Shown here in pieces: positions 8,991 through 55,570 of a stretch of DNA of 64,000 bases. A model generated the notes under the pieces. It worked only from the letters and a program-made list of their open reading frames with translations. It was not told where the DNA came from and ran no database searches. Each line of letters begins with the position of its first letter. Within the stretch, counting starts at the first letter, position 1. Both the position numbers and the translations under genes were made by a program. Source of the DNA: Octopus vulgaris (lineage: Eukaryota); assembly GCA_951406725.2 (NCBI GenBank), contig OX597834.1, positions 16,864,001-16,928,000 of the forward strand. Direction: 5' to 3'.

Positions 8991-9088
8991 TCCATCGTTA
9001 AACCAATTTTTAAGCATCCCCACTATCTTACACCGTTTCTCTATTCTTTCAGAAATATCAAAGACGAAGTTGTCAGAGGAGAATAATT

Positions 9089-10279
9089 ATGGAAAACGAA
9101 CTCTGTGAGAAACCAGTTCGAATTAAAACAGAGTTTGAAAGCCCTGGTTTTCCCGATGAGATGTTGAAAGAGATAAAAGACACATCATACTCCTGTGATG
9201 TTTGTAGTAAATTGTTTTCTGAAAGTGGTCACTTAGATATTCACAAATGTGTTCATACAGGCGAGAAACCACACCACTGTGATATCTGTGGTAAATCATT
9301 CTCTTGCAAAAGTCAGCTACTTAGGCACGAACGTATCCATACACAAGAGACAGCATTTCACTGTGATGTTTGTGGTAAAACATTTTCTAAAAGCCATACA
9401 TTGAATACTCACAAATGTATTCGCTCAGAACAGAAGCTACACCAATGTGATATCTGTGATAAATTCTTTTCTAAAAGTGGTAACTTGAATTCTCACAAAC
9501 GTATTCATACAGGAGAGAAACCATATCATTGTGACATTTGTGGTAAATCATTTACTACAAGTGGTGCCTTGAGCACTCACAGACTTATTCATACAGGAAG
9601 GAAACCATACCGCTGTGAAACTTGTGGTAAATCATTCTCTGTTCCAAGTAAACTAACAAGACACGTATATATTCATACTGGAGAAAAACCATATTGCTGT
9701 GATTTCTGTGGCAAATCATTCTCTCAGAACGTTGACTTGAGCAAGCACATACGGGTTCACACAGGGGAAAAGCCATATCACTGCGATATCTGTGGTAAAT
9801 CTTGCTCTACAAGCAGTGACTTGATTAAACATAAGCGTGTTCATACAGAAGAAAAACCATTTCTCTGTGATATCTGTGGTAAATCCTATTCTTTAAGCAG
9901 TCATTTAAATACTCACAAACGTATTCATTCAGGAGAGACACTATTTCACTGTGATGTCTGTGGCAAATCATTTTCTAGAGGTGGGATCTTAAATGCTCAC
10001 AAACGTATTCATACAGGTGAGAAGCCGTATCATTGTGATGTCTGTGATAGATCATTTTCTACGAGTAGTTCCTTAAATGCTCACAAACGTTTTCATACAG
10101 GTGAAAAACCATATCACTGTGATATTTGTGGTAAATCATTCTCTGAAAATAGTAACTTAAATGCTCACAAACGTATTCATACAGGAGAGAAACCATATAA
10201 TTGTGATATCTGTGGTAAATCATTCTCTCACAGAAGTGCTTTTAACAATCACAAACATATTCATATTGCAGAAAAGTAG
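9089..10279 (+). CDS. Tandem C2H2 zinc-finger protein, 396 aa, 13 finger repeats (third lacks final His), no KRAB/SCAN/BTB
   Basis: Repeated CxxC-x12-HxxxH with TGEKP linkers; single coding exon after acceptor TTCTTTCAG at 9052. Confidence 0.93.
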
Positions 10280-18310: not shown

Positions 18311-18892
18311 TATGTCCACTATTTTATAGTTTTGCATAAATAATGATAGCGTTACTGTAGTCTGTGATATATAGACCTCTCGTGAGGTTGTTTGATGTAA
18401 TTTTAATAACAAATTTAAAGTTCAGATGACGACGTAAATGTTTATATTAAGTTTTTCAATATGAAAATGTAACAAATTTTCCATCATTGAATCTACTTTT
18501 TAGTATCCCTCCATCTTATACCGTTTCTCTATTATTTCAGAAATATCAGATGACGTGGGCATAAAAGTATTGCTTACTTCAAATGTGTGGTCGATATTTA
18601 TCATCTTTTAAAAAGGAAGTTGTTCCACAGAATGGATATCATTCTGTTTCTATAAATTTGTGATAAAGTGGAGAATGTTTGTTGTGATTTGAGATCATTT
18701 GCAAAATTCTTCTACTTCTATGCCTGGAATATCTTCAGGAGTTGGTTGTTTTGTAATTAACCATGGAGAAATTTTCACAGGAGTTTGCAATATCTTCAGC
18801 CATCAATAAAGATCACGTTTTATGGAATTATAGCAGTAGAAATAATTGTAAAGAAAATACAGGAGAAACGAAGTTGTCAAAGAGGAATAATT

Positions 18893-20497
18893 ATGGAAAA
18901 TGAATTCTGTGAGGAGTCAATTCAAATTAAAACAGAAACTGAAAGCATTGATTATCCTAATGAGATGCAGAAAGAGAGAGAAGGAACATCATATACCTGT
19001 GATATCTGTAAAAAGTTATTCACTCATAAAAGCCACCTAACTGATCACAAACGTATTCATGCAGGAGAAAAACCATATCGTTGTGATATCTGTGGTAAAC
19101 CATTCTCTGCAAGTGGTGCCTTAAACACTCACAAACGCATTCACACAGGAGAGACACCATATCACTGTGATATCTGTGGTAAATCCTTTTCTGTAAATGG
19201 TAACTTAAATGCTCACAAACGTATTCATACAGGAAAGAAACCTTATCATTGTGATACCTGCGGCAAATCATTTTTTGACAGTCACACTTTAAATAATCAC
19301 AAACATATTCATACAAGAGAGAAACCATATCACTGTGATATTTGTGGTAAATCCTTCCCAGATAAAAGTAAATTAAGGAGACACATATACATTCATACAG
19401 GAGAAAAACCCTATTGCTGTAACATCTGTGGTAAATCGTTCTGTCAAAATGTTGACTTAAATAAGCACATACGAATTCATACAGGAGAAAAGCCATTTCA
19501 GTGTGATATTTGTGGTAAATCTTGTTCTAGAAGCAGTGACTTGATTATACATAAGCGTGTACATACAGGAGAAAAACCGTATCACTGTGATATCTGTGGT
19601 AAATCTTTCTCAGGAAGTAGTGCCTTACATATACACCGGCGTATTCATACAGGTGAGACTCCATATCACTGTGATATTTGTGGTAAATCATTTTCTGAAG
19701 GTGGTACCTTAACTAAGCATAAACGTGTTCATACTGGAGAGAAACCATATCACTGTGATATCTGTGGTAAAACATTCTCCAATAGGGGAAATATAAATGG
19801 ACACAAACGTATCCATACAGGAGAAAAACCATATAAGTGTGATATTTGTGGTCAGTCATTCTCTGGGAACAGATATTTAACTGAACACAAACGTCTCCAT
19901 ACAGGAGAAAGGCCATTTCACTGTGATCTCTGTGGTCAATCATTCTCTGTGAATAGACATTTAGCCAAACACAAATGCATCCATTCGGGAGAAAAATCAT
20001 ATCAGTGCGACATCTGTGAGAAATCATTCTCTACCAATAGATACTTAACTAAACACAAATATATTCATACAGGAGAGGGACCAAATCCTCATGACTTTTG
20101 TAACAAATCATTTTCCCATGGTAAAGCTTTAATTATACGCAAACACGTTGATACAAGTGAGAAACTATATCAGTGTGATATCTGCGGTAAATCATTTTCT
20201 CAACAATATTTAACTATACACAAACGCACTCATACAGGTGAGAAGCCATATCTCTGTGTTATCTGCGGGAAATCTTTCTCTCAAAACGTTCACTTAACTC
20301 TACACAAACGCACTCATACAGGTGAGAAGCCTTATCACTGTGACATATGTGGAAAATCTTTCTCTCAAAGAAGTACCTTGTCTAATCACAAATATGTTCA
20401 CAGAGCAGAAAAGCTCTACCTTTGTGACACCTGTGGGAAATCATTCGCCAGAAGTTTTCAACTAACTAGACACAAGCGTCTTCATACAGAGGAGTAG
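18893..20497 (+). CDS. Tandem C2H2 zinc-finger protein, 534 aa, 18 finger repeats (one degenerate, one shortened)
   Basis: ATG 18893 (MENEFCEES) aligns with the gene 1 start; acceptor ATTATTTCAG at 18540; TGEKP-linked fingers. Confidence 0.93.
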
Positions 20498-22866: not shown

Positions 22867-24538
22867 ATAATACTCATTTAGAAATATTATACAAATGTAA
22901 TGATGGTTATTGTGTTACTGCCAAAAGAAAACAAATATTACAGCAATATTACAATACAGATTATTTGGATAGAGAGACAATAAATGATTTATGCAAGAGC
23001 TATAAGAATGATAGATGCAATATTAATAGGAAAATTAGGGCGGCAAGCTGGCTGATTTGTTAGTATGCCAGGCAGAATGCTTTGTGGCATTTCATCAATC
23101 TTCACATTCTGAATTTCTGGCCATGTGCCAATATTTGAAACCATTATTAACAACTATATTTCTGGGAAGAAGGGAAGGCTGATAGTTAGGTAGTTGTTTC
23201 TATGTTTGAATAATAATATTTGTATATGATATCCTATGTATCATCTGAATTACAAATGCAAAAAAAAAAACATGGAATAACAAAAATGAATATATAAATT
23301 ATTTCATTAAACAATTGCTGAAAAGAACGTTTTTCAGAATTTTTTTTTTTAACCTTTTTTGCATTCAGATTATTCTCTCAAATGTCATGCTTATTTTTAT
23401 TTATCCATATTGTTTCGAATTAATCATGCATTATCTTGTGGCTTCAAAATTATAACAATGTCATTTCAAGAATAACTTTGTCCAGAAAGCTGTGGAAGGC
23501 TGGATCTGGCCAGTTTGAACACGAAACAGGTTTGGGCTGGATATGGCCAGTTTGAACACGAAACAGGTTTGGGCTGGATATGGCCGGTTTAAATGCTAAA
23601 GGATTAAAGCCTGGTACTTATGTATATGTAAGGGTAAAGGGTAAAGACCCCCTTCAGTCACAAATGACTATGGGATTGCACGTTGAAAGCTCCGCTCTGA
23701 GGCACAAGTCCAGGCAAGATTGTTTATGGAAAACTAGCAGTCACCCATGCATATCAGCCCCCACACCTCTCCATGCCACTGATGTTGTCCAAAGGAAAGG
23801 CAGAGACTGATACAGCTTGGCACTAGTGACATCGCAACTCATTTCTACAGCTGAGTGAACTGGAGCAACTTGAAATAAAGTGTGCTGCTCAAGAACATAA
23901 CACACAGTCCAGTCCACGAATTGAACTTACTACCTCATGATTGTGATCCCAATGCTGTAACCACTGAGCTATATATGTGTATATTATACACTCACAAACG
24001 AATGTATGCATATAGCATATTTGTATAAGTGCATCTGTGTATAATTAACCCTATCATTAAATCACCTGCTTTTCATCCCCTGAGAACACTAATTCCTGCT
24101 TGGATCTGCTCACATTGGACTTAATGAAATCAATGTGCCTGTGACAAACCTCCCCAACAATTTATCTTACACTAGTCACTGCATTCCCCCCCTTTCTATC
24201 ACCCACTCTCCTTTTCCACTCCTGCAAGCTTACCTTAACACAATCTGCCCCTAACAAATCTCTCCCCCACAACATCTTCCTAACACTCAATCCCCCTGTC
24301 CACTCTGGTCAAATTTGTTAACCCATGCCAGCAAAGAAAGCCGATGTTAAATGGTGATCTATTTGTTTCGGTCATTTAACTGCAACCATGCTGGAGAATC
24401 TTTAGTCAAATGAGTTGTCCCTAGCCCCTTGCCCTCTGCTTTATTTTTGTGAATCTGCTACTTATGCTGTGGGTCTCTTTTGCCAAGGACATAAACACAC
24501 CAACATTGGTTGTCAAGTAGTGGTGGGGGTTCAAACAC

Positions 24539-32729: not shown

Positions 32730-33299
32730 ATAATGATTATAATTATTACAAACTATATTTTCTATTAAGACACTTAGGAAATCTCTCCCTAGCTATGTTT
32801 TTCTTTTGCAGATGTTTTAAGGTGAATGTAGCCATATCTATCTCACCAGTCTTGAAGTACCTGAGTCTTAGAAAAAAACTAAACATATCTCTCTTACACT
32901 CTGTGTCAATCTTTTTTAATTAAATGTTTAACAGAATTAAGTTGCGATGGCAGTAAATACAAATATAAAAAACTGACTGTATAGTATTAAATGAAAAATA
33001 AAATGTTTTTGCTTCCCCCCCATCTATTTAAACACATAAACACCATGTTTTATATTTTTCTTTACTTGCCCTGTAGCAATATTGACAATTAACTTACACA
33101 ATTATCATACACACTTAAAAATACTGAATTGTGTATTTCGGTGTATTTTCGATTGAAGACGTGGTGTATAAATGACATGGAAGTAACGTAAACATACAAA
33201 TACAATATCATAAACAGGATGAAAAGGAAGAGGAGGATAAAATTCAGTTTTACTTAAATAAGATAGTGTTAAAAATAACTTTTGTTTAGGTCTCAATTC

Positions 33300-34631
33300 T
33301 CACCGATTTATTCTTCGTTTTTTGTTTTCAGTTCTTGAAGAGCTGTTATTATGTTTATTCCTAATTTTAGTTAACGTTTCATCCCCTAATAAACTCCTTT
33401 TTTTGGAAGGTTGCCCTGAAATATGTTCGCTTCCATGCTTAGTGCTAATGTGTGAAGGTGAGAATTTGTCCTTGGAAAATTGTTCTTCATCATGATCATC
33501 ATCACGATCATCATTACAATCATCGTCATCATTATCATCTTCATCGTCATCATCCTCATCATCGTCGTCGTCGTCACCATCATCATCATCGCTCACAATC
33601 TCCCCCTTTTCTAAGTCTACACACTCAGTTTCTGACTGTTCAGTGACTGTATGTAAATCACTTTGTGGCTGAGGAGAAAATGTTTTGAGAGAATTCTGAT
33701 CTTCTCTCAGACTGTCATTACTGCAATATTCCTCATCATGAGTCTGATAGATATCAACTAACTGTGTTGTATCTTCACAATCTTCATCTTGTTGCCTTCT
33801 GTTATGGGCAGCAATTTCTTGTGATAGTTTTTTTTTCATTTCATTCAAAAACTCAAGGCTGTGATTCTTTGCTAGTGTGTCATCTTGGATAGGATTTTCC
33901 ACTGATACTTCATAATCAGGTTTACTTGGTGAGAAAAGTTTACGAACAGAGGCTTTCTTCCTTGTCATGGAATCATCGCAGTCAGAATCTTTACTACTCA
34001 ATGATTCAGGTGCCATCGAGTTTGTCACACTGCTAGAAAAGCAAGGAGTAATTACAGAAGAACGAGAATCTTCTAAATTAGATTTGCCAAAACACTCAGT
34101 AACTATAGGTTCCTGATTATTCAATGTGACTGAGGTCTTTTGTGAAATAACAGGTGAGATGTTTCTATCACATTTAGTTGTCAGTTCTGGTGAAGTTACA
34201 ACTGGATCGCACACTTTACTGCGATGTTTGTCCGTTGGAGAGACTTTTCCAGTAGAAGATTTAGAGCTCTCTGCATCAGATCCTGCAGATTTTACTGACA
34301 GTTGTGTTACTACACTGATTGGTTCTACAGATTGCTGACAATCAATCAACTTAGAATCTTGTCTCTTGGCATTACCGAATTCACTGGAGTCATTAGATAA
34401 ATTGTGCTTTTCTTTGAGTGGAGCAGTATGAGATTTTGTAGTCTCAGACCTCAAAGATAATTTTTTTGTAGACGAAGGCATCCTTTGGCAGTGATGTTGT
34501 TTACTACCTTCCCTTTTATGTTCTCTTGAGGAATTTTCCATTTTTATATTTGAAGAATAAGTTTTATTTCTGGAGTGTCTTGATGGTTTCCTTTCCAATA
34601 ATCTATTATCTGTTGTTTCAGGCTTTTGCAA
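33300..34631 (-). CDS. CASP8AP2: 443-codon open frame, low-complexity S/K/D/E-rich; probable central part of FLASH, disconnected from the N-terminus (first ATG 34541, 413 aa)
   Basis: Same strand, downstream of FLASH exon 3; VDLEKGEIVSDDD resembles the FLASH ARS2-binding EEGEI motif; end may be the stop or a donor CG|GTGAGA at 33303. Confidence 0.6.
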   Translation of the reverse strand: MQKPETTDNRLLERKPSRHSRNKTYSSNIKMENSSREHKREGSKQHHCQRMPSSTKKLSLRSETTKSHTAPLKEKHNLSNDSSEFGNAKRQDSKLIDCQQSVEPISVVTQLSVKSAGSDAESSKSSTGKVSPTDKHRSKVCDPVVTSPELTTKCDRNISPVISQKTSVTLNNQEPIVTECFGKSNLEDSRSSVITPCFSSSVTNSMAPESLSSKDSDCDDSMTRKKASVRKLFSPSKPDYEVSVENPIQDDTLAKNHSLEFLNEMKKKLSQEIAAHNRRQQDEDCEDTTQLVDIYQTHDEEYCSNDSLREDQNSLKTFSPQPQSDLHTVTEQSETECVDLEKGEIVSDDDDGDDDDDDEDDDDEDDNDDDDCNDDRDDDHDEEQFSKDKFSPSHISTKHGSEHISGQPSKKRSLLGDETLTKIRNKHNNSSSRTENKKRRINR

Positions 34632-35194
34632 ATCTCAACTAGAATGTCATTCCTCATATCTTCATTCATTCTGCCTTTGTTCTCTTGAGCCAGAATGCTA
34701 GGAATATTTCCTATCACTTTCTTTGAAATCTCTTCAATCCCTGTAACAGTTGATTGTGATATGTTTACTGCCTCTTGAGTTTGAACATTTAATTGTTTTC
34801 TATAAGCTTCTTGTGATATTCAGTCAGGCAGGGAAGTTATATTTATGCTAGCAGGTTTTCTCAGGTCAATACTTTCAAATAATGGATGACGTACAAAGAC
34901 TTCTTGTAGGAACTTTTATCAGCAGCAGTTTTCTCTGTTTCACATTTAAAACGATTTAATTTTGAATTTGTAGAATGTGGGGTATTCAGTGTCTGTGAAG
35001 AAGTTGTAATATTTTCGAATGTAGGTGATCATACTGAATCAGAAGGCATCAACTTTGCACTTGGCACAGTAGGAGCTATGCAATGAGAATTGGGTTCAAA
35101 CCTGTTTTGATGATATAAAATACCTTCAGAAATTTTTGAAATAATAATCGAATCACTGGAGGTATAGGCGGAATGAGATTGTGTACGGAAGTTG
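34632..35194 (-). pseudogene. Decayed coding segment within the FLASH large exon
   Basis: Protein-like S/T- and R/S/E-rich translation needing two frame changes and containing 11 TGA/TAG stops. Confidence 0.6.
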
Positions 35195-35348
35195 TCAAAA
35201 TGAATACATGTGCGGGGATTTCTCTTTTTCATAAGAGTTACGTCTATAAGTTTGTGAAGGCTTGCTGTTGCTCTGATAATCACCGTTCCATTTTGAATAT
35301 CCCGACTGTCTTTTCTTCAGATAGTTTTCTTTTTCGTAAGATTCCAAT
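35195..35348 (-). CDS. CASP8AP2: FLASH coding exon 3, up to the first in-frame stop
   Basis: Acceptor TTTGTTTCACTTTCCAG|; phase-2 join gives Q-LESYEKENYLKKRQ...KSPHMYSF-TGA. Confidence 0.7.
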
Positions 35349-35509
35349 CTGGAAAGTGAAACAAAAATCAGAATATAAATAGGTGTGTTGCATTGTAAAA
35401 TTATATTTTCAACAATCAAGACACACAGACATTAAATAAGTTCTACAAATTAGTTGATTGGTTCCTACGTATTCAAGGAATTTTGTGATGAAAGATTTAA
35501 ATTCATCAT

Positions 35510-35808
35510 ATTTATTTCTATATTGCCCACTGGGAGCTAAACATAGAGGGGACAAACAAGGACAGACAGGGATTAAGTTGATTATATCGACCCCAGTGCG
35601 TAACTGGTACTTATTTAATCAACTCCAGTGCGTAACTGGTACTTATTTAATCAACTCCAGTGCGTAACTGGTACTTATTTAATCAACCCCGAAAGGATGA
35701 AAGGCAAAGTCAATCTTGGCAGAATTTGAACTCAGAACGTAATGGCAGACTAAATACCGCTAATCATTTCGCCCGGTGTGCTAACGATTCTGCCAGCTCG
35801 CCACCTTA
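35510..35808 (-). mobile_element. SINE family B with an internal 30-bp unit in three copies
   Basis: CCAGTGCGTAACTGGTACTTATTTAATCAA x3 at ~35593-35686. Confidence 0.85.
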
Positions 35809-35959
35809 ATTTAAATTCATCATATTATTTGCTTCGTTATCAGGCTTGTGACTTGGTGGTTAGGCTATTCGGTGTGACATGGCGCCATCCAGACCCCACC
35901 TGTCTGTTATAGAGTCAATAAAAGATATTACGAAAAGACAAATAGACCAACAAACTTAC

Positions 35960-36150
35960 TGTTCTCTTAAAGACTCAATATTATCGTTTTTCCTTTTGAT
36001 TTCTGTGCATGCAGTTTTGTACAGCATCGATATATTCTTCTGCAAGTATACGTTTTTCTTTTCCAGTAACTCCATAGCCGCAGTGCGTTCTTTCACAGTA
36101 TTTTCCAAAGTAGCAATCTTCTGCAGAGCTTCCTGGTATTTTTGTTGCAA
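35960..36150 (-). CDS. CASP8AP2: FLASH coding exon 2 (Lsm11-binding coiled coil)
   Basis: TTTGTTTTAG| and CA|GTAAGT; LQQKYQEALQKI...KNVYLQKNISMLYKTACTEIKRKNDNIESLRE matches the FLASH pattern N.SLKKNISALIKTARVEI.RKD. Confidence 0.9.
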
Positions 36151-37935
36151 CTAAAACAAAGAATAATTTCATTAGAGAGTCTCAAAAGTGGTTGGGCATC
36201 AAAGACATTAGCTATGGTATCTTTATTTTTTACTCATTCCAGTCACAGGACTAAGGCCATGCTGGGGCACCACCTTGTAGGATTTCTCTCTCTCTCTCTC
36301 TCTGTCTCTCTGTATATATATATTAAAATATATACATACATACAGATATACATATCTACATCATCATCATCGTTTAACGTCCGTTTTCCATGCTAGCATG
36401 AGTTGGACAATTTGACTGAGGACTGGCAAACCAGATGGCTGCACCAGGCTCCAATCTTGATCTGGCAGACTTTCTACAGCTGGATGCCCTTCCTAACGCC
36501 AACCACTCCTAGAGTGTAGTGGGTGCTTTTACATGCCACCGGCATGAGGGCCAGTCAGGCAGTACTGGCAACAGCCACACTCAAATGGTGTTTTTTACAT
36601 ACCAACCAGCACAGGAGCCAGTCGATTTAAGCAGGCCTAATCTGCAAGGATGAAACTGCAGCTAGCCATCAATCTCCAAGCTGAGCTGATTATCTCAGAC
36701 ATTTCCATGAACAGAAACCATGAAACTTTAGATTGATGCCCTTTGGTAAGCTATCATGGTAGGCTAAATTACAATACTGACCTCCATCATCACCAGTTGT
36801 GTCCATCCTTAATAACACTAACCAAGTCTACCCAAAAGCTGACCTTCAGCATATAAGTCACAGGGTGATTTTTTGAGGGAATTTCAAGGAAAAAAAGTGC
36901 ACTTTATATGCCAGAAGTTATGGTATCTATATATAAGAGGATGCTGAAAAGTTCCTGGTTTTGGGTGAAAGGAAAGACAGGAGGATCAGTTGATTATGAT
37001 TTTATTCAACATATTCCCCTTTCAGATTCACACACTTATTGCAGCAGTCCTTCAGTTTTTCTTAGCCCTGTAAAAGAACTCAGAACTTCGGGCCTGTAAC
37101 CGGGCCTTTCATGGTACCCCTTAAAGCCAGAAAATTTTCAGCACCCCCTAGTATATACATATATATAAAAGAGAGAGAGAGTGTGTGGCTTCTTTCAGTT
37201 TCTGTCAACCAAATTCACTCACAAGGACTTGGTCAGTCTGGGGTTTTGCACAGTGGGACTGAACCCAAAACCATGTGGTTGGGAAGCAAGCTTCTTACCA
37301 CACAACCATGGACATGTGATGTAAACAGATACACAATGGGCAAGAAAAAGAAAAAAACAAAGAGAGGGGCACAAGTTGTTGTTAGGGTTAGCCCCTTGAT
37401 ATAACAGATCTTCTATGGTCAAAGACATTCCAGCTGAGACCATCCTGTCTTTTTAGGAGTATCTAGTACTATTATGCGTTTGCCACAAGGTCCAGTCCTT
37501 GTTGCAGTATAGTGGTTTATGTGCTTCAATGACCCTGAGAGCCGTGGCACAAGCTCTTAGGGTCAAAGATTAAAGGCCAATCTGATATGGACTGCTTCTC
37601 CCCGGGGGTAAAAATAGGTTTGCATAGGGCCTATACCGGCAAATGAAAACTAACAAGTCTTGGGAGAGGAAGGATTTCCCATCACCCCATGATGCAGCAA
37701 CATCTGAAAGGCTTCAGAGTCAACTCCCCTTTTGAAGCAGGGATCCAACAGGAGAAGTAGAACAGACAGGTGAGGGTCAAGAACAGTGAAGAAAAGTCAT
37801 CAATGACCTATGATCCATAGGGAGTGGGGGATTGGAGTAAGTGAATAAGACAATATGTATCTAATTTTTCGGTCCTGATTTTAAGGGGTACTAACACTTC
37901 TAGAAGGAGGAATAAATATTTGTGTTTCCACCTAC

Positions 37936-38040
37936 CTCAGCAAGAGATTCCTTCTCACATGCAAAGTCTTCCTCGAGGATGTCATCATAAAGGTCAAGGT
38001 CACCAGTAGTTTGTCGATCAATGAAGTCTGATACACTCAT
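37936..38040 (-). CDS. CASP8AP2: FLASH coding exon 1 (LDLY motif)
   Basis: MSVSDFIDRQTTGDLDLYDDILEEDFACEKESLAE, donor GAG|GTAGGT, phase 0; upstream acceptor TTGCAG| at 38061; too short for the ORF track. Confidence 0.88.
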
Positions 38041-38227
38041 CTTTGCATGTCAGCTATGGACTGCAATGACAAATTGAAGCAACATCGTTAACAAAAGGAT
38101 AAAAACCCATCAAACAGAAGCAACCTTAGCTTCATATAACACACACATACACATAGTATACTGCTACACAGCTGTTTATACATACATGTACGCACTTCAC
38201 AGCAATAATGCTTTCAAATTTTGTCAC

Positions 38228-38932: not shown

Positions 38933-39519
38933 CACAGTATATTTTTCTTATTGAAGAGGGCATAAGAAGAATAGGAGGAGAACTTGGTAACTCACTCTTA
39001 TATGTATCAGCTCTCCTAACCATTTAGACCCTCTGGAGAAGCCTCTATCTACCCATCCCTACAGAACATTGAAGAGATGGAGGATATTGTGGCCTCGTGG
39101 CAGAAACGGCCGTAAGGAAGTGATCTTTTAATCTTTTACTCTTTTATGTATTACTAGTATATATTTGTGTAGCACACAGTCTTTGCATGTGTATGTATTC
39201 TTATAATACTTCCTTATGTTTTAGAATAAATAGACACAATAGAATGTCTACCAGCTAATGTACGTCAATTTTATATCCTCTCCATTTTCTTTTTTGCCTT
39301 ATAAATTATAATTAAATTTATATTTTTGCCTTATAAATTAAGGGTAAACCACTTTGTACACCCACCCGTATATGACGCCCGATTGTGAAATTGCCACGCA
39401 ATAACCAGCACTTGGGTATTAATAATTGGGTACACTACCAGCAGCATATTGGCTAGGTACTATCCCATAGTTGGTTGGCTTGCCAACCAATAAGTCCCAC
39501 GGAAATAAATAAATATATA

Positions 39520-42290
39520 TATATATATTTAGGCTCTGGGATTGAAATTCCCTGTGGACCAGTGGACCCTGTAAGTTTCATATTCAGCTTTGGACGCTGG
39601 TAGTGCAGCGCTTGGAAATTTTCAGCATTAAACTGCATACTATTATCCTTAGCCCATCTGTAAATTGAGTCCAACTCCTGCTGCAGATGTGCATCATCAC
39701 TGGGGTTCTGTATTTTCTGCGAGACTTTTGTATTGTCTGCATAGATTGTAAGGATGGCTATCTGGGCGTTTGAGGGCATATCTGAGAGAGCCACTATAAA
39801 CAGCAGTGGTTCCAAGACAGTGCCCTGTGGAACACCGCTCACTATTTATGTTTTCATAGAGGTGGCTCCATTAGCCACAACTGCCTGAGTCCTATCTTTC
39901 AACCGTATTTCGTCTGTCGTTACGTTCCAAGTTCAAATTCCGCCAGGGTCAACTTTGCCTTTCATCCTTTCGGGGTTGATTAATTAAGTACCAGTTACGC
40001 ACTGGGGTCGATGTAATCGACTTAATCCCTTTGTCTGTCCTTGTCTGTTCCCTCTGTGTTTAGCCCCTTGTGGGTAGTAAAGAAATATATCTTTCAGAAA
40101 GTCATGTAACCACTCTCCAAGTTTTCCAGCTATGCTGAGATCACGCGGTTTGTGGCGTATCATACCATGATCTACTTTGTCAAAAGCTTTTGCAAAATCA
40201 AGGTATATTACATCCACATTCGAGTTCTTGAGTAACTGCCTCAACACCCAGTCATAATGTTGTAAGAGCTGGGTGAGGCAGCTGCTGCCTGGTCGAAAGT
40301 CATGCTGGGTATCACTCGGCAAGTTATTTTCTTCAAGAATTGCGATTAGTTTCCCTCTGAATATCCGTTCCATGACTTTGCTGATGTGTGAAGTCAGAGA
40401 GATAGGCCTATAGTTTTTGGCATCTGCTCTACTTCCCCCTTTATGTATTGGGCATATTATTCCCTTCTTCAGCTTGCTTGGCAGTCTGCCATTTGCAAGA
40501 AAGCTCTGGAAGAGAATCTGGAGGGGTTTTACTAGGGCATGCTTCGCCTGGCCCCCGTGCCGGCGGCACGTAAAAAGCACAATCCTGTAGAAACTCTGCC
40601 AGATCAGACTGGGCCTGATGCAGCCTTCTGGCTTCACAGACCCCAGTTGAACCGTCCAACCCATGCTAGCATGGAAAGCGGACGCTAAATGATGATGATG
40701 ATGATGATGCTTACACAATTTGAGGAGGATTGCTGGGAAACCATTAGGACCAGCAGTTGAGTTTGCGTCCACCTCACCTATGGCTAGTAGTATATCTTTG
40801 CTAATGTCGATGTATTCCATTGTAACTGCGTTGCTGGTTATAGGTGAGGTGGCATAAAAGTCCACTGGTTCATTCACTTGTCCGTGTTCCAACGGGGTGG
40901 TAAAGACACTTTTGAACTGGTCATTCAGTTCCTCACTGATCATCGTTGGACTGTCTGTAAGGGAGCCATGCTTCTGGAAGAGGAGTCCTATTTTGCAGCG
41001 TACTGAGGCTGTTTCTTTCGCGTAATGAAAGAAGGCCCTTGGGTTTGACTTAATGTTTTTTATAACCCGGGTTTCTTTGTCTGCTTTCTCCCTCACATAG
41101 GATTGTTGCAGCCTTTTTTTCAATCTCTATCAGTGTTGTTTTTAAGTGGGCCCTTTTGTCACTTTTGGGATGTTGGTTGAGCCAATTTGCAACCTTCATC
41201 CATCATCTCATGAGGATCTTCCTCTCCCTTGGAATCTTGTTCCTATTTGTTTTGGCCTTGTGCTCTGGGACATATTTCTGGCATATGGCTTGCACAATAG
41301 ACATAAAACATTCTCGTTTCATGTCAATGTCTGGTGTGGAGAGACATTTCAGCCAGTCCTCTCTGAGGATCGCTTTTTGGATCGATTTCTAATCTGCTTT
41401 GTGGAAGTTCAGATTGGACAGATTTCGGGTGCTTCCTTTAGGCTGTATGTCTCTGGGTACTTTCAGCCCAAACATAGACAGCTCTATTATTTTGTGATCC
41501 GAGAGTAATGTCGGTGTCACTTTCACATCATGAATGATGTCCATATTGTTCGTGAAGCAGAGATCCAAAATGTTATTCGCCCTAGTTGGTCTGAGTACAG
41601 CTTGCTCCATGAATAGGGCATTGGTGAGGTTGAGCAGGGACTCCACCTGTGCTTGCTTGCAATGAGTCATTCCTGAGAGTACGAGACCTTCGGACCATTT
41701 GACGTTGGATAAACTGAAGTCACCCATAAGAAATATGGTCACGTGGTGTTCCAGTTTTATGAGAATTTCTTTAATTCTTGTGAGGCAATCTTCAAACTTG
41801 CCTATGTGGTTTGGTGCATCCAGTGGGCAATATGTATGGCATATAACTAGATTATGTTGTCTTGTGTATACAATTAGAGTGTCACATACCGAATTTGAGT
41901 ATGACAGTAAGAGCTGGGGTGTGAGGTCGCCACGGATGTATACAGCAACTCCACCATGGTTCCTTTCCCTTCTGTCTGTTTGCAGTATGGCATAGTTTGG
42001 TATGTGTACTTCTGCATCCTCTATATCAGGGCTGAGGTGAGTTTCCACGAGTGCTATGCATAGGGCTTGATTGCATACAGCAAGATCTCTCATGAAAAAA
42101 TTTTGCTTTTATCATGATGCAACAGGCCCCCAATATTTAGTAAAAGTATTGGTGTGACGACTGTGCAGGCATTAGGGGAGGCCATCCCATGTCTGTTGAC
42201 TGTGGTGGTCTTGCACAGTGGTGGGCAAGATTCTTTATTTGTGCTTGGTATAGCCAGGACAGCTGCTGCACAATTTTTTGCACCATGTAT
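39520..42290 (-). mobile_element. CR1-group LINE, APE endonuclease plus reverse transcriptase, defective, with two SINE insertions
   Basis: VETHL, GGVAVYI, MGDF, PTRANNILDLCFTN, SDH; NYRPISLTS, VIYLDFAKAFDKVDH, SGVPQGTVL, IYADNTK; SINE B at 39902-40087 (TSD TATCTTTCA); SINE E at 40545-40706 (TSD ATGCTT). Confidence 0.92.
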
Positions 42291-47046: not shown

Positions 47047-50000
47047 TAACAAAGCCATCTGTGTATATTTCATGTTTATATACACTGACTATAAGTCTTG
47101 CATTTATCTAGAGATAATAACATCTTTTATAGACCTGCTTAATTATAAACATAATAAATATCAGAGAGACGGAATTAGAAACTGGCCTAGCATAGTGTAA
47201 ACATTAAGTATGTATGCTACAGATCATAATAAACAGGCTGGGAAGATTATTTCACTGAGCCTATCTCAGTAAGTTTTACACTAAAACCAAATAAAAACGA
47301 TTGTTAAAGGATCACAAAAACGAACCATTCTGCCCCTAGTCCTTTTTTTGTCTCTCCACTAATATTATTATATTGTGTGTGGTATATATTTTTGTAAATA
47401 TTCTAAGATATCTAGGTACGAGTAGCGTAGTAGATATCTATAATCCCACACAGCTAAACTAAAAAATAGAGTGTAGTTTTAGATTTAGCGCGCTCTTTCA
47501 CAGCGAATGCTTTCTATCATGCAATAAGAGACGACTGCTAATCTTATAGTTAGGTCCCCTTTGTGTTATGAAGACCGCAGAAATGACCAAAAGTTACAGT
47601 AAAATATTTTTAAAGAACGTAATCAATTGCTTCTGATAGCGTCCTTGATGAATTGTCGTTTAGCTCCAACTTAACCCTGGTCGAGTAGACCTATGATCAA
47701 CGATATTCCAGCCATAGTTTATCACGTCTATTTTGTACATCCACGTATACGTTGTCTAAAAAAAAGTGTGGTTTTCAGGGAAATTATTAATTAATTACAT
47801 GGTGACTGTCTCATTAGCTCGTGTCCTTGAATGGAGTCAGCATGTTGCGAAGTCGCAAGTCTTTCCAAAAGATATCGGTGACGTAAATGGAAAGAAATGA
47901 TTTCAACCAGACACAACCGGACACCTTACTTCATTCAGTATAGCTTTTAATGGTTCAACTTCAGTTCCGCATAACATTATGTACCAATGATTATTGTTTA
48001 CATAAGGGTTTTACTTTGAACTCGGCCTGTTTTTTTATTTTGATTCAACGATAATAATTTTGTTGGTTGGGTTCGATGCATTGGTTTACTTACTAATAAA
48101 CTGGATGAGTAACGCATAAATGCGAAACGGTTTCAATTGGGAATCGAAATCGGTTTGTCGACTGGATTCCGCGAGATTTCAAATGCCACATCGCAAGGAC
48201 CCGCAAAATACCAGTAAATCAATCAAACGAAATAAAATACAAAATAGGGTAAAAATACGAGAATTTTTAGCTGGGGTGGGGGCTTTATAGTACATACCTG
48301 AGAATTTGCGCAGTGTTTCGAGATCTATTTGGTATTCATGTATACAGTAGTCATGAGAGATTGGCAGAAGATTGATGTGGTGGTGGTGATTATAACGTAG
48401 ATACAGTCATCGGTATTAATTATGAGACATTAAAATTATAAAGATACAAATGCAAGTAAAAATGGAGTAAAATCATTCGATGGTGATGACTTGAGTTGAC
48501 AAAAATGATATTTAAAAATCAGATGATGGTAATATTCCCAGTAAACAACAGAGAATATACATCTATATGCTTTGATTTCCGCAAATCCATAATTGTTTGC
48601 GTTTGTTTCTTCCGTTGATCCATCCCCCAACCTCAATACGCGCCTTATTTATTTATTTTTTAAAGTCCAATACATTAGCCTCGTTTTAGAAATATTACAA
48701 TATCGCTTAGTTTCTCCATACCGTATGTGTGTGTGTATTTCTTTATATGTGTATGTGTATCTGTGTCTGTGTGTATTTCTTTATATGTGTATGTGTATCT
48801 GTGTGTATGTGTCTGTATTTCTATATGTGTGTTAGTGTATATCTGAGTGTGTGGTTGTAGTTGTGTGTACGTGTTTGTGTTTATATCTATGTGTGTATTT
48901 ATATGTAGTTGTGTCTATGTATCTGTGTATATGTGTATGTGTATCTGTGTGTGTGTGTCTGTATTTCTATATATGTGTTAGTGTATATCTATCTGAGTGC
49001 GTGTGTGTGTGTGGTTGTAGTTGTGTGTACGTGTTTGTGTTTATATCTATGCGTGTATTTGTATGTAGTTGTGTCTATGTACCTCTGTGTACGTGTGGGC
49101 GCATCTGTATGTGTATGTTGTCTCATGTCGAATGAAATGGGTCTTAATATTTCCATTTTTCATTAAAATTTCTCCTCCCTAATAATAAACGGTAAAATAT
49201 TCTCTCTAAATCGTACAGCCATTCACATAAGATATTTTAAAGACCGCACAGCTCGTACAGAAATACTGACAGGAATCGCTTAGTTAGGGTTGCCATGTCG
49301 AAGACAATGAACCCCAATCAAGAACCGAAGTACTTTTTTTAAAACATTAATTTCTGCTCTGCTAAATATAAAAAAAACAAGTTTGCAACAACAATCTTTA
49401 TCACGTTTGAATAAAATAATGCAAAAACAGCAAATTTATTCTGGGAGTTTGAAACAATTTAACGTAGTCACACGAGCCTGCGGCCCGGTTTCGATTCGAC
49501 TTCACGTCTTTTGTTAATCACTATGGCTTAGAGATAAAATGCTGGGGGCTACTGTTCGGTTAGTGTATGAGTGTCATATATGTAACAGAACGAGTTGAAA
49601 TATTTCGATCATTTGAGATGGTCCTAGCAATTGGTAAGTACAAATTTTAGTTGTGTTAAAAGCTAAAAATAAAAAAAGGTATTAGTTGATCGAACAACTT
49701 ATAATCTTTTCTGTTTCTCTATTGTCCACTATTGTTTAAACTCTCTCTAAACAATTTTTGGTTGCATTGTAGCGTGCGGTCAACCTAACCATTTACACTT
49801 TAACATGCAGTCTAAATCTAACTCTGAGCCCTAACTTGACCTTAGTACTTAACACTAACCCTAATCCTAAACCCGAATCCTGACACTCATCCAGATCAGG
49901 TCATTCCACAACGTATGCTACGGATATTGCCACCGAGTGCATCCAATTTCCTCTGGTTTTCAAAGAGCTTTGATTGACTTCTCAGTTTATTCCCGAACTA

Positions 50001-54204: not shown

Positions 54205-55570
54205 ATCAACTTTATCAAAAGCTTTTGCAAAAGTCCACATTTGAGTTGTCGAATAACTGCTTCAACACCCAGTCATATCATAGTGCTGTAGGAACTATGT
54301 CAGACAACTCCTACCAGCTCAAAAAACATGTTGGGTATCACTCAGCAAGTCATTTTCTTCAAATAATGTGATTAGTTTCCCCCTGATAGGTTTGCTGATA
54401 GGTGAAGTCAGAGAGATAGGCCTATAATTTTTGGCATTTGCTCTGCTTACTCCTTCATGGATTGGGCATATTATTCCCTCCTTCAGTTTACTTGGCAGCT
54501 TGCCATGTGCAAGAAATCTCTGGAAGAGAATTTGTAGTGGTTTTACCAGGGCACGTTTGAACAATTTGAGGAGGATTGCTGGGAAACAATCAGGGTCAGC
54601 AGCTGATTTTCCATCCACCTCATCTATGGCTAGTATTATATCTTCTTCCCCAATGTCAACGTAATCTATCATAACTGCCTCTCTGGTTATAGGTGAGGTG
54701 ACAAAGAAGTCTACTGGTTCATTCACTTGTCTGTGTTCCAAAGGGGTTGTAAAGACACTTTTGAACTGGTCATTCAGTATTTCACTGATCTTGGTTGGGT
54801 TATCTATGAGGGAGCCATCCTTCCGAAAGAAGGGTCCTATTTTGCAGCATACTGAGGCTGTTTCTTTGGCCTAACAAAAGAAGGCCTTTGGGTTTGACTT
54901 TATGTTTTTTATAACCCAGGCTTCTTTGTCTGCTCTCTCCTTCACATAAGATTGTTGCAAGCTTTTTTCAGTCTCCATCAGTGTTGTTTTTAGGTGGGAC
55001 CTTTCACTACTTTTGGGATGTTGGTTGAAACAATTCGCAACCTTCATCCATCATCTCATGAGGATCTTCCTCTCCTTTGGAATCTCATTCCTTTTTGTGT
55101 TGGCCTTGTGGTCTATTTTGCAGCATATGGCTTGCATAACAGACATGAAATACTCTAGTTTCATGCTAATCTCTGGTGTGGAGAGACATTTTGGTCAGTT
55201 CTGTCTGAGGATCCCTTTTTGGATCGATTTCCAATCCGCTTTGTGTAAGTTCAGACTGAAGAGATTTCAGATGCTTCCTTTAGGCTGTATGCCTGTGGCT
55301 ACTTTTGGTCCATACTTAGACAGCTCTATTCTGTTGTGATCTGAAACTAATGTCGGCATCACTTTCTCATTATGACCAATGTCCATATTGTTTGTGAAAC
55401 AGAGATCCAATATGTTATTTTCCATGGCTGGTCAGAGCACAGTTTGCTCCATGAATAGGGCATTGGTGAGGTTGAGCAGGGACTCCACCTGTACTTGTTT
55501 GCAATGAGTCAGGCAAATGGCCTGAGGACACTGGGTAAGTTGAAATCACTCATAAGGAACATATTCACGT
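54205..55570 (-). mobile_element. Second, more decayed copy of the CR1-group LINE at 39520-42290
   Basis: FPAILLKL..RALVKPLQILFQ...NYRPISLTS; collinear nucleotide similarity; lacks the SINE E insertion. Confidence 0.88.

Follow-up and report, generated by a model that had tools for sequence, protein, structure and literature searches.

A 64,000-nucleotide stretch of the Octopus vulgaris genome (assembly GCA_951406725.2, contig OX597834.1, positions 16,864,001 to 16,928,000 of the forward strand; hereafter, the window) carries on its minus strand a FLASH (CASP8AP2) gene that is interrupted in the middle, and the question it raises is whether the two ends of the protein are now made separately or whether the gene is being lost. 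In mammals and flies, histone mRNA cleavage is tied to the first 140 residues of FLASH, and its concentration in the histone locus body is tied to the far C terminus of the same protein. A preliminary description of the window had proposed gene fission, leaving an N-terminal open reading frame (ORF1) and a downstream one (ORF2) on either side of a decaying linker. Our analysis suggests that this split FLASH gene is a transcribed, spliced, and likely working copy that likely yields two proteins from one mRNA, a reading to which we give a probability of about 0.5; that the fission yields two proteins, by whatever route, we consider highly probable. The preliminary description had missed a second, unbroken copy of the gene, and protein annotations indicate that the split arrangement is common to other octopuses. 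The layout of the split copy, in window coordinates, is as follows.

48298..48670, minus strand: probable non-coding first exon, 5′ end approximate; donor CAG/GTATGT at 48298/48297
37936..38060, minus strand: first coding exon; acceptor at 38060, ORF1 ATG at 38040, LDLY motif
35960..36150, minus strand: second coding exon; coiled coil and Lsm11-binding helix NISMLYKTACTEIKRK, ORF1 residues 74-89
32904..35348, minus strand: last exon of the major transcript; end of ORF1, linker, ORF2, and 3′ untranslated region (UTR), with ATTAAA at 32920
35195..35197, minus strand: ORF1 stop codon TGA, after 149 residues; the same in RNA contigs
34542..35194, minus strand: intercistronic linker of 653 nt; stop-poor remnants of an older frame, 8 ATGs
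33300..34541, minus strand: ORF2, 413 residues; acidic and rich in Ser, with a tail that is basic; its homologous region in the unbroken paralogue is residues 218-627

The coding exons (38060-37936, 36150-35960, and 35348 onward) have GT/AG ends and encode 149 residues that include LDLY (residues 15-18) and the coiled coil, ending at the TGA at 35195, just as the preliminary description had stated. Its start of the first exon at 38040 was correct for the ATG, but the exon itself opens at the acceptor at 38060, with a 5′ exon lying further upstream. This probable upstream exon is placed by contigs that extend 280-370 nt 5′ of the first coding exon, by non-repeat homology of 48812-47861 to DNA upstream of the paralogue, and by a donor common to both copies. 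ORF1 matches the solved N-terminal domain of human CASP8AP2 (6AOZ) with an E value of 1.4e-8 and covers the region equivalent to human residues 55-139, with the coiled coil and the Lsm11-binding helix intact. In the human protein, LDLY binds the histone cleavage complex, and L118 and I119 are experimentally required for Lsm11 binding (PMC5636114). ORF1 would form dimers by way of its coiled coil and, with LDLY, bring in the histone cleavage complex; binding of Lsm11 in a 2:1 complex and support of histone pre-mRNA cleavage, both expected of a FLASH protein, are predicted for it too. Its domains would cover all that the known processing chemistry requires, and it stands first on the message. 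The 149-residue protein is annotated in O. vulgaris and is identical in Octopus sinensis.

For RNA evidence, 24 sequencing runs were listed; half or more of the sampled words are present in 18 of these, and for most of them the label "RNA" is a guess. Both introns were joined in contigs of all four runs examined, and these contigs are thus spliced RNA. The 2.4-kb exon 3 is gap-free in one contig, from 35348 to ~32904-32918, in three of the four (X1, X5, and X7, with 1-3 other letters), while in the fourth run four overlapping contigs cover it to 32733; a fifth run agrees with the genome over 34250-35348. Assembly error at the lesions, for which the preliminary description had left room, was ruled out, since RNA contigs from five runs align to the linker without a gap and carry its stops. 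It follows that the stops are real and that the main message retains the linker. Exon-internal splicing had also been suggested as a route to ORF2, and none was seen among the RNA contigs: in both deep runs (X5 and X9), the interval 34250-35420 contained no joint and no sequence difference, and exon 3 contained no loose end or joint. Contigs lose rare forms, however, and are not molecules. By the rule of nonsense-mediated decay, the exon-junction-dependent pathway spares stops in the last exon; as the ORF1 stop lies there, the major form should escape that pathway.

One loose contig end, at 34409 in run X19, was a candidate for an ORF2-only splice form and was rejected as a chimera because it matches another genome contig. 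Runs X19 and X20 are labeled insect metagenome and hold low-depth contigs of the octopus gene at ~96-100% identity, which are probably cross-contamination. Contigs pass without branching through six blocks (33-88 nt) identical in the two copies, a hint of low paralogue expression in X1, X5, and X7, although contigs cannot rank genes.

The ~560 nt of broken sequence noted earlier after ORF1 was confirmed, as the 560 nt from 35194 to 34635 are interrupted in all three frames. About 450 nt of the linker are missing from the paralogue and have a single match in the genome. A repeat insertion was rejected as the origin of the linker, since there is only that one match and its stop-poor frames resemble old coding sequence; a single stop occurs in 120 codons (P = 0.006, uncorrected). 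Four stops fall within the 25 codons at 34700-34635, where the paralogue has sense codons, and none fall in the next 444. Short repeats in the paralogue at the point where ORF1 leaves the ancestral frame meant that the exact exit could not be placed. A-to-I recoding of the ORF1 stop was likewise rejected as a way of joining the two ORFs, because 9 more stops follow in frame before ORF2, which lies in another frame.

The second copy came to light in a genome search with ORF2, as a match with 70-78% identity that lies 390 kb away, on the opposite strand. Exons 1 and 2, used as queries, each hit two loci, and only two N-terminal domains were found in all.

G000:C21:17291262-17295329, plus strand: unbroken paralogue, a single ORF of 613-627 residues (proteins P0004, P0001, and P0002)
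33575..33860, minus strand of the window: tract of 88 codons nearly identical between the copies (synonymous divergence, dS, 0.105; nonsynonymous divergence, dN, 0.014; dS elsewhere, 0.35)

The paralogue has the same three coding exons, phases, and stop as the split copy, and its 3′ UTR and upstream region are similar. It differs in lacking the ~450 nt of linker and a poly-Asp run and in having L, T, and G at three near-invariant positions of the Lsm11-binding helix. ORF1 and ORF2 are homologous, in order, to its residues 1 to about 130 and 218-627. Between the copies, dS is ~0.35 in ORF2 and ~0.6 in ORF1, and dN/dS is 0.50 and 0.34, respectively; the near-identical tract may reflect gene conversion, strong constraint, or a combination of the two. 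The first 200 nt of the 3′ UTR (window 33299-33100, minus strand) differ by 8-9% between the copies, less than most of the coding sequence, which may be due to conversion or to a regulatory element. Both copies have a 3-codon upstream ORF (window 38048-38037, minus strand) whose stop overlaps the ORF1 ATG. The paralogue also has an alternative 3′ exon at L009 9481 (G000:C21:17299481, plus strand), with its donor just after the motif EKGEI, that fits the annotated 557-residue isoform P0005, in which the basic tail is dropped.

Comparison across species indicated which of the two copies is the more constrained. The annotation of O. sinensis contains proteins of 149 and 413 residues, and that of Octopus bimaculoides contains a 418-residue protein starting from the same Met as ORF2. 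The ORF2 frame is thus open for 413-418 codons in three species, and its length changes are whole-codon only. O. bimaculoides and O. vulgaris lie ~34 million years apart according to 10.1101/2023.05.16.540928. Between them, ORF2 has 9 differences in 413 residues and the same region of the unbroken copy has 47 in 399 (Fisher P = 4e-8), or 6 in 224 and 33 in 225 when the homogenized tract is excluded, so that this region has evolved about five times faster in the unbroken copy. In contigs of a related octopus, the listed changes in ORF2 are 4 synonymous and 1 nonsynonymous (P = 0.011), and 200 nt of the linker carry 5 changes and a 1-nt insertion.

The N-terminal domain gave a similar picture. 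Of the 54 non-octopod homologues, 50 were readable at the helix, and among these S76, E85, and R88 of ORF1 are matched by S in 47, E in 49, and R in all 50. All three residues are kept in ORF1 and in an Argonauta model and are replaced by L, T, and G in all three paralogue proteins. With Argonauta as the outgroup, 11 changes fall on the unbroken copy, 2 on ORF1, and 12 on neither with certainty (P = 0.022). The lesions are limited to 35197-34635, which is not the neutral, gene-wide decay expected of a pseudogene. On these protein and low-depth RNA comparisons, both ORFs are under purifying selection, and the unbroken 627-residue copy is probably relaxed or re-purposed. The earlier proposal that the flanking ORFs are maintained while the linker decays is thus supported by the conservation of both ORFs, the stops in RNA, and the confinement of the lesions.

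The downstream frame is uninterrupted and has its ATG at 34541 in the context AAAATGG, as first described; from stop to stop (34634-33300), it contains 444 sense codons rather than the 443 then reported. Neither ORF2-type nor paralogue proteins matched any Pfam family, and no relatives of ORF2 outside Octopus were found among proteins of 227-924 residues. A poly-Asp run of ~30 residues (window 33590-33490, minus strand) is specific to the split copy and is kept in all its relatives with small changes in length. The motif that had been called ARS2-binding-like did not withstand comparison with the consensus.

33597..33611, minus strand: EKGEI, a degenerate form of the ARS2-binding EEGEI; the O. 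sinensis protein has EKGGI

The ARS2-binding consensus is [ED][ED]GE[ILV] (PMC9402713). It is not matched by EKGEI in ORF2 and the paralogue, by EKGGI in O. sinensis ORF2, or by ESGEI in the O. bimaculoides paralogue. A predicted complex of an ORF1 dimer with ORF2 residues 190-325 scored 0.02, which is evidence neither way. ORF2, which would represent the former C terminus of the long mollusc FLASH, would likely be a separate nuclear protein. It would start at its strong ATG by re-initiation or internal entry, possibly aided by a small ORF that ends just upstream.

34544..34669, minus strand: 41-codon ORF with its TAA 2 nt before the ORF2 ATG (TAA-AA-ATG); present in the paralogue as an overlapping frame

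In the related octopus, 3 of the 4 listed changes in this small ORF are synonymous in its frame (P = 0.04). It may be under selection, which we treat as a lead only, and its stop-restart geometry is suitable.

A number of observations weigh against the reading of two proteins from one mRNA. Nineteen ATGs, 8 of them in the linker, lie upstream of the ORF2 start, which makes scanning or ordinary re-initiation a poor route to it. In the 300 nt that precede that start, neither an unusual fold (z = −0.08) nor UGGGA, a known restart motif, was found. Relative to the paralogue, the 41-codon ORF has no codon-position bias (9/8/7). Both ORFs are on single contigs in three of four runs, yet a contig spanning two ORFs is not proof of one transcript. 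ARS2 binding by ORF2 is doubtful, given a motif that is off consensus and further changed in O. sinensis. Counterparts of human L118 and I119 (L78 and Y79) are present in both copies, so that the paralogue may still be functional. The related-octopus contigs come from two runs at a depth of 2.5-5.7, with 13 of 16 differences listed, and the helix homologues were found with ORF1 as the query, which favors ORF1. A search for an ORF1 protein of O. bimaculoides did not recover one (1 match among 26 candidates), so that the split in that species is taken from its protein model. Production of either protein, Lsm11 binding, and the initiation route of ORF2 are all things that we infer.

The most serious competitor, which we regard as a real but clearly lesser possibility, is that the fission is real and ORF2 is made from its own minor mRNA, starting in the linker or joining a 5′ exon to ORF2, while the long message serves ORF1. 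Such an mRNA would bypass the 19 upstream ATGs, it would explain the conservation of ORF2 equally well, and the linker contains poly(A)-like hexamers at 34960, 34793, and 34568. The annotated 276-residue O. vulgaris model P0006 begins at the second ATG of ORF2, which may point to a separate transcript and so also counts against a single mRNA, and it makes use of an alternative 3′ exon.

23234..23244, minus strand: probable alternative 3′ exon start at 23244, with a strong acceptor, explaining the end of isoform P0006 (placed from the protein model)

The exon-3 contig is unbranched in X1, X5, and X7 and, through 34250-35348, in X9, and exon 3 has no loose end or joint in X5 and X9; this argues weakly against a separate ORF2 mRNA, because contigs drop rare forms.

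It is improbable that ORF1 alone is translated and that what follows is an extended 3′ UTR whose old frame is kept open by slow mutation, conversion, or RNA constraint. Such a view takes its support from a start that is hard to reach, a degenerate ARS2 motif, and the fact that ORF2 translation is something deduced; in addition, codon-position bias between the copies is weak over ORF2 codons 1-225 (36/39/48), and the 88-codon tract appears homogenized. Against it, the frame has stayed open for 413-418 codons in three species with changes of whole codons only, and the related octopus has 4 synonymous changes to 1 nonsynonymous in ORF2 and a frameshift in the linker. Amino acid changes are also five times fewer than in the unbroken copy, including outside the homogenized tract.

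We consider it very improbable that a rare splice form drops the linker and restores one protein, the two-ORF RNA being regulated or unproductive. Twenty-one AG sites in 34634-33900 would join exon 2 in frame, and three of them (34032, 34029, and 33924) have pyrimidine tracts as strong as those of true acceptors, but no such joint was present among the 15 joints listed (267 more exist) or within 34250-35420, and no fused protein of the split-copy type was present among the database matches. The alternative offered in the preliminary description, that the split copy is decaying to a pseudogene and the unbroken 627-residue copy is the working FLASH, is largely refuted. There is indeed an intact paralogue 390 kb away, and the linker has several stops and frameshifts, but the split copy is expressed, spliced, and the more constrained of the two in both ORFs, with ORF1 identical in O. 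vulgaris and O. sinensis.

Returning to two proteins from one mRNA, we asked how old the arrangement might be. A 140-residue model from Argonauta hians (GAB1606835.1, P0010), known here as a protein model alone, resembles ORF1 in being short and in having an intact helix, NISMLYKTACAEIKRK; no Argonauta downstream ORF was found among proteins of 227-924 residues. Over residues 13-70, the two Octopus copies share 47 of 58 positions, and ORF1 and Argonauta share 36 of 57, which suggests that the duplication is later than the split from Argonauta. A tree built from 14 N-terminal domains places the three paralogue proteins together (100/100) and leaves the position of Argonauta unsettled. If the Argonauta model is complete, the shortest history that these sequences suggest is an old fission followed by one in-frame deletion in the duplicate, which would make the unbroken copy a re-fused one. 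If the model is truncated, fission after the duplication may fit equally well. Short records resembling FLASH are frequent (25 of 56 matches have at most 213 residues, many of them unnamed and possibly fragments or non-animal), and thus a lone short database entry is weak evidence. We therefore hold only tentatively, and as somewhat unlikely, the full history in which FLASH underwent fission in the ancestor of argonauts and octopuses, both proteins were made from a bicistronic mRNA, and duplication was followed by re-fusion through deletion of the linker. If it is true, a natural FLASH consisting of the N-terminal domain only, without the domain that targets it to the histone locus body, would serve histone mRNA processing in octopods, the first animals in which this is known.

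The split copy would be a conserved gene fission caught on one transcript, and a selected ORF behind 19 ATGs would imply an unusual initiation route. Database names conceal it, as the three annotated products are called "uncharacterized," "PFC0760c," and "CWC22 homolog," and a longest-ORF rule selects the wrong copy as FLASH. The literature searched, outside which most subscription papers lay, contained nothing joining CASP8AP2 and octopus and no natural split FLASH, and PMC13552480 and PMC7026596 gave no further information. The available main text of a 2026 pathway survey does not mention molluscs or cephalopods (10.64898/2026.10.14.759114), and its supplements may list these proteins.

Elsewhere in the window, two single-exon C2H2 zinc-finger arrays (9014-10279 and 18761-20497, both plus strand; 421 and 578 codons open) lie beyond the 3′ end of the FLASH gene, on the opposite strand, and are typical of the octopus zinc-finger expansion. 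An Rfam scan of the window returned 0 matches. Broken endonuclease/reverse-transcriptase fragments of the long interspersed nuclear element type are found at 39453-42108 and 54319-54870 (both minus strand), the first of them in the probable first FLASH intron.

Vertebrate FLASH/CASP8AP2 shares with ORF1 an N-terminal LDLY and a coiled coil with the Lsm11-binding helix (PDB 6ANO and 6AOZ; PMC5636114). It is one protein of ~1400-2500 residues that also has EEGEI and a C-terminal Myb-like domain, whereas in octopus the N-terminal domain is an ORF of its own. The Myb-like domain (PF21227) was detected in 14 of 25 proteins scanned (24 of the 56 matches plus the query) and was missing from all four long mollusc FLASH models and from two insect matches. 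Thus, the absence of a SANT/Myb exon downstream, which the preliminary description had noted, is likely a mollusc trait and not a result of the split, although the PF21227 model may overlook divergent invertebrate domains. A search for the domain elsewhere in the genome with PF21227 or one vertebrate-type domain, made without a positive control, did not find it.

The long mollusc proteins (Potamilus, 3424 residues; Gigantopelta, 2706; Solemya, 2028; Patella, 1915) have the N-terminal domain and, late in the sequence, an acidic GE[IL] motif with a tail rich in Lys, Arg, and Ser after it, the same architecture as the end of ORF2. Unlike the octopus gene, they are single ORFs with the consensus [ED][ED]GE[IL], and they have no significant similarity to ORF2, so that the likeness is architectural only. 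No full-length decapod or Nautilus FLASH model was identified. The engineered miniFLASH likewise keeps the N-terminal domain; it is an engineered construct in which residues 1-200 are joined to residues 1751-1982, so that it retains a C-terminal targeting domain, which the natural ORF1 lacks (PMC12305476). With the best-conserved FLASH N terminus on a 149-residue protein, the octopus gene is a natural test of the need for a histone-locus-body tether. Dicistronic animal mRNAs such as SNURF-SNRPN and, in Drosophila, stoned and Adh-Adhr carry two selected ORFs on one spliced, capped transcript. The octopus message, in which translation of ORF2 is putative, differs from them in that a single ancestral protein is the source of both its ORFs, one from each end.

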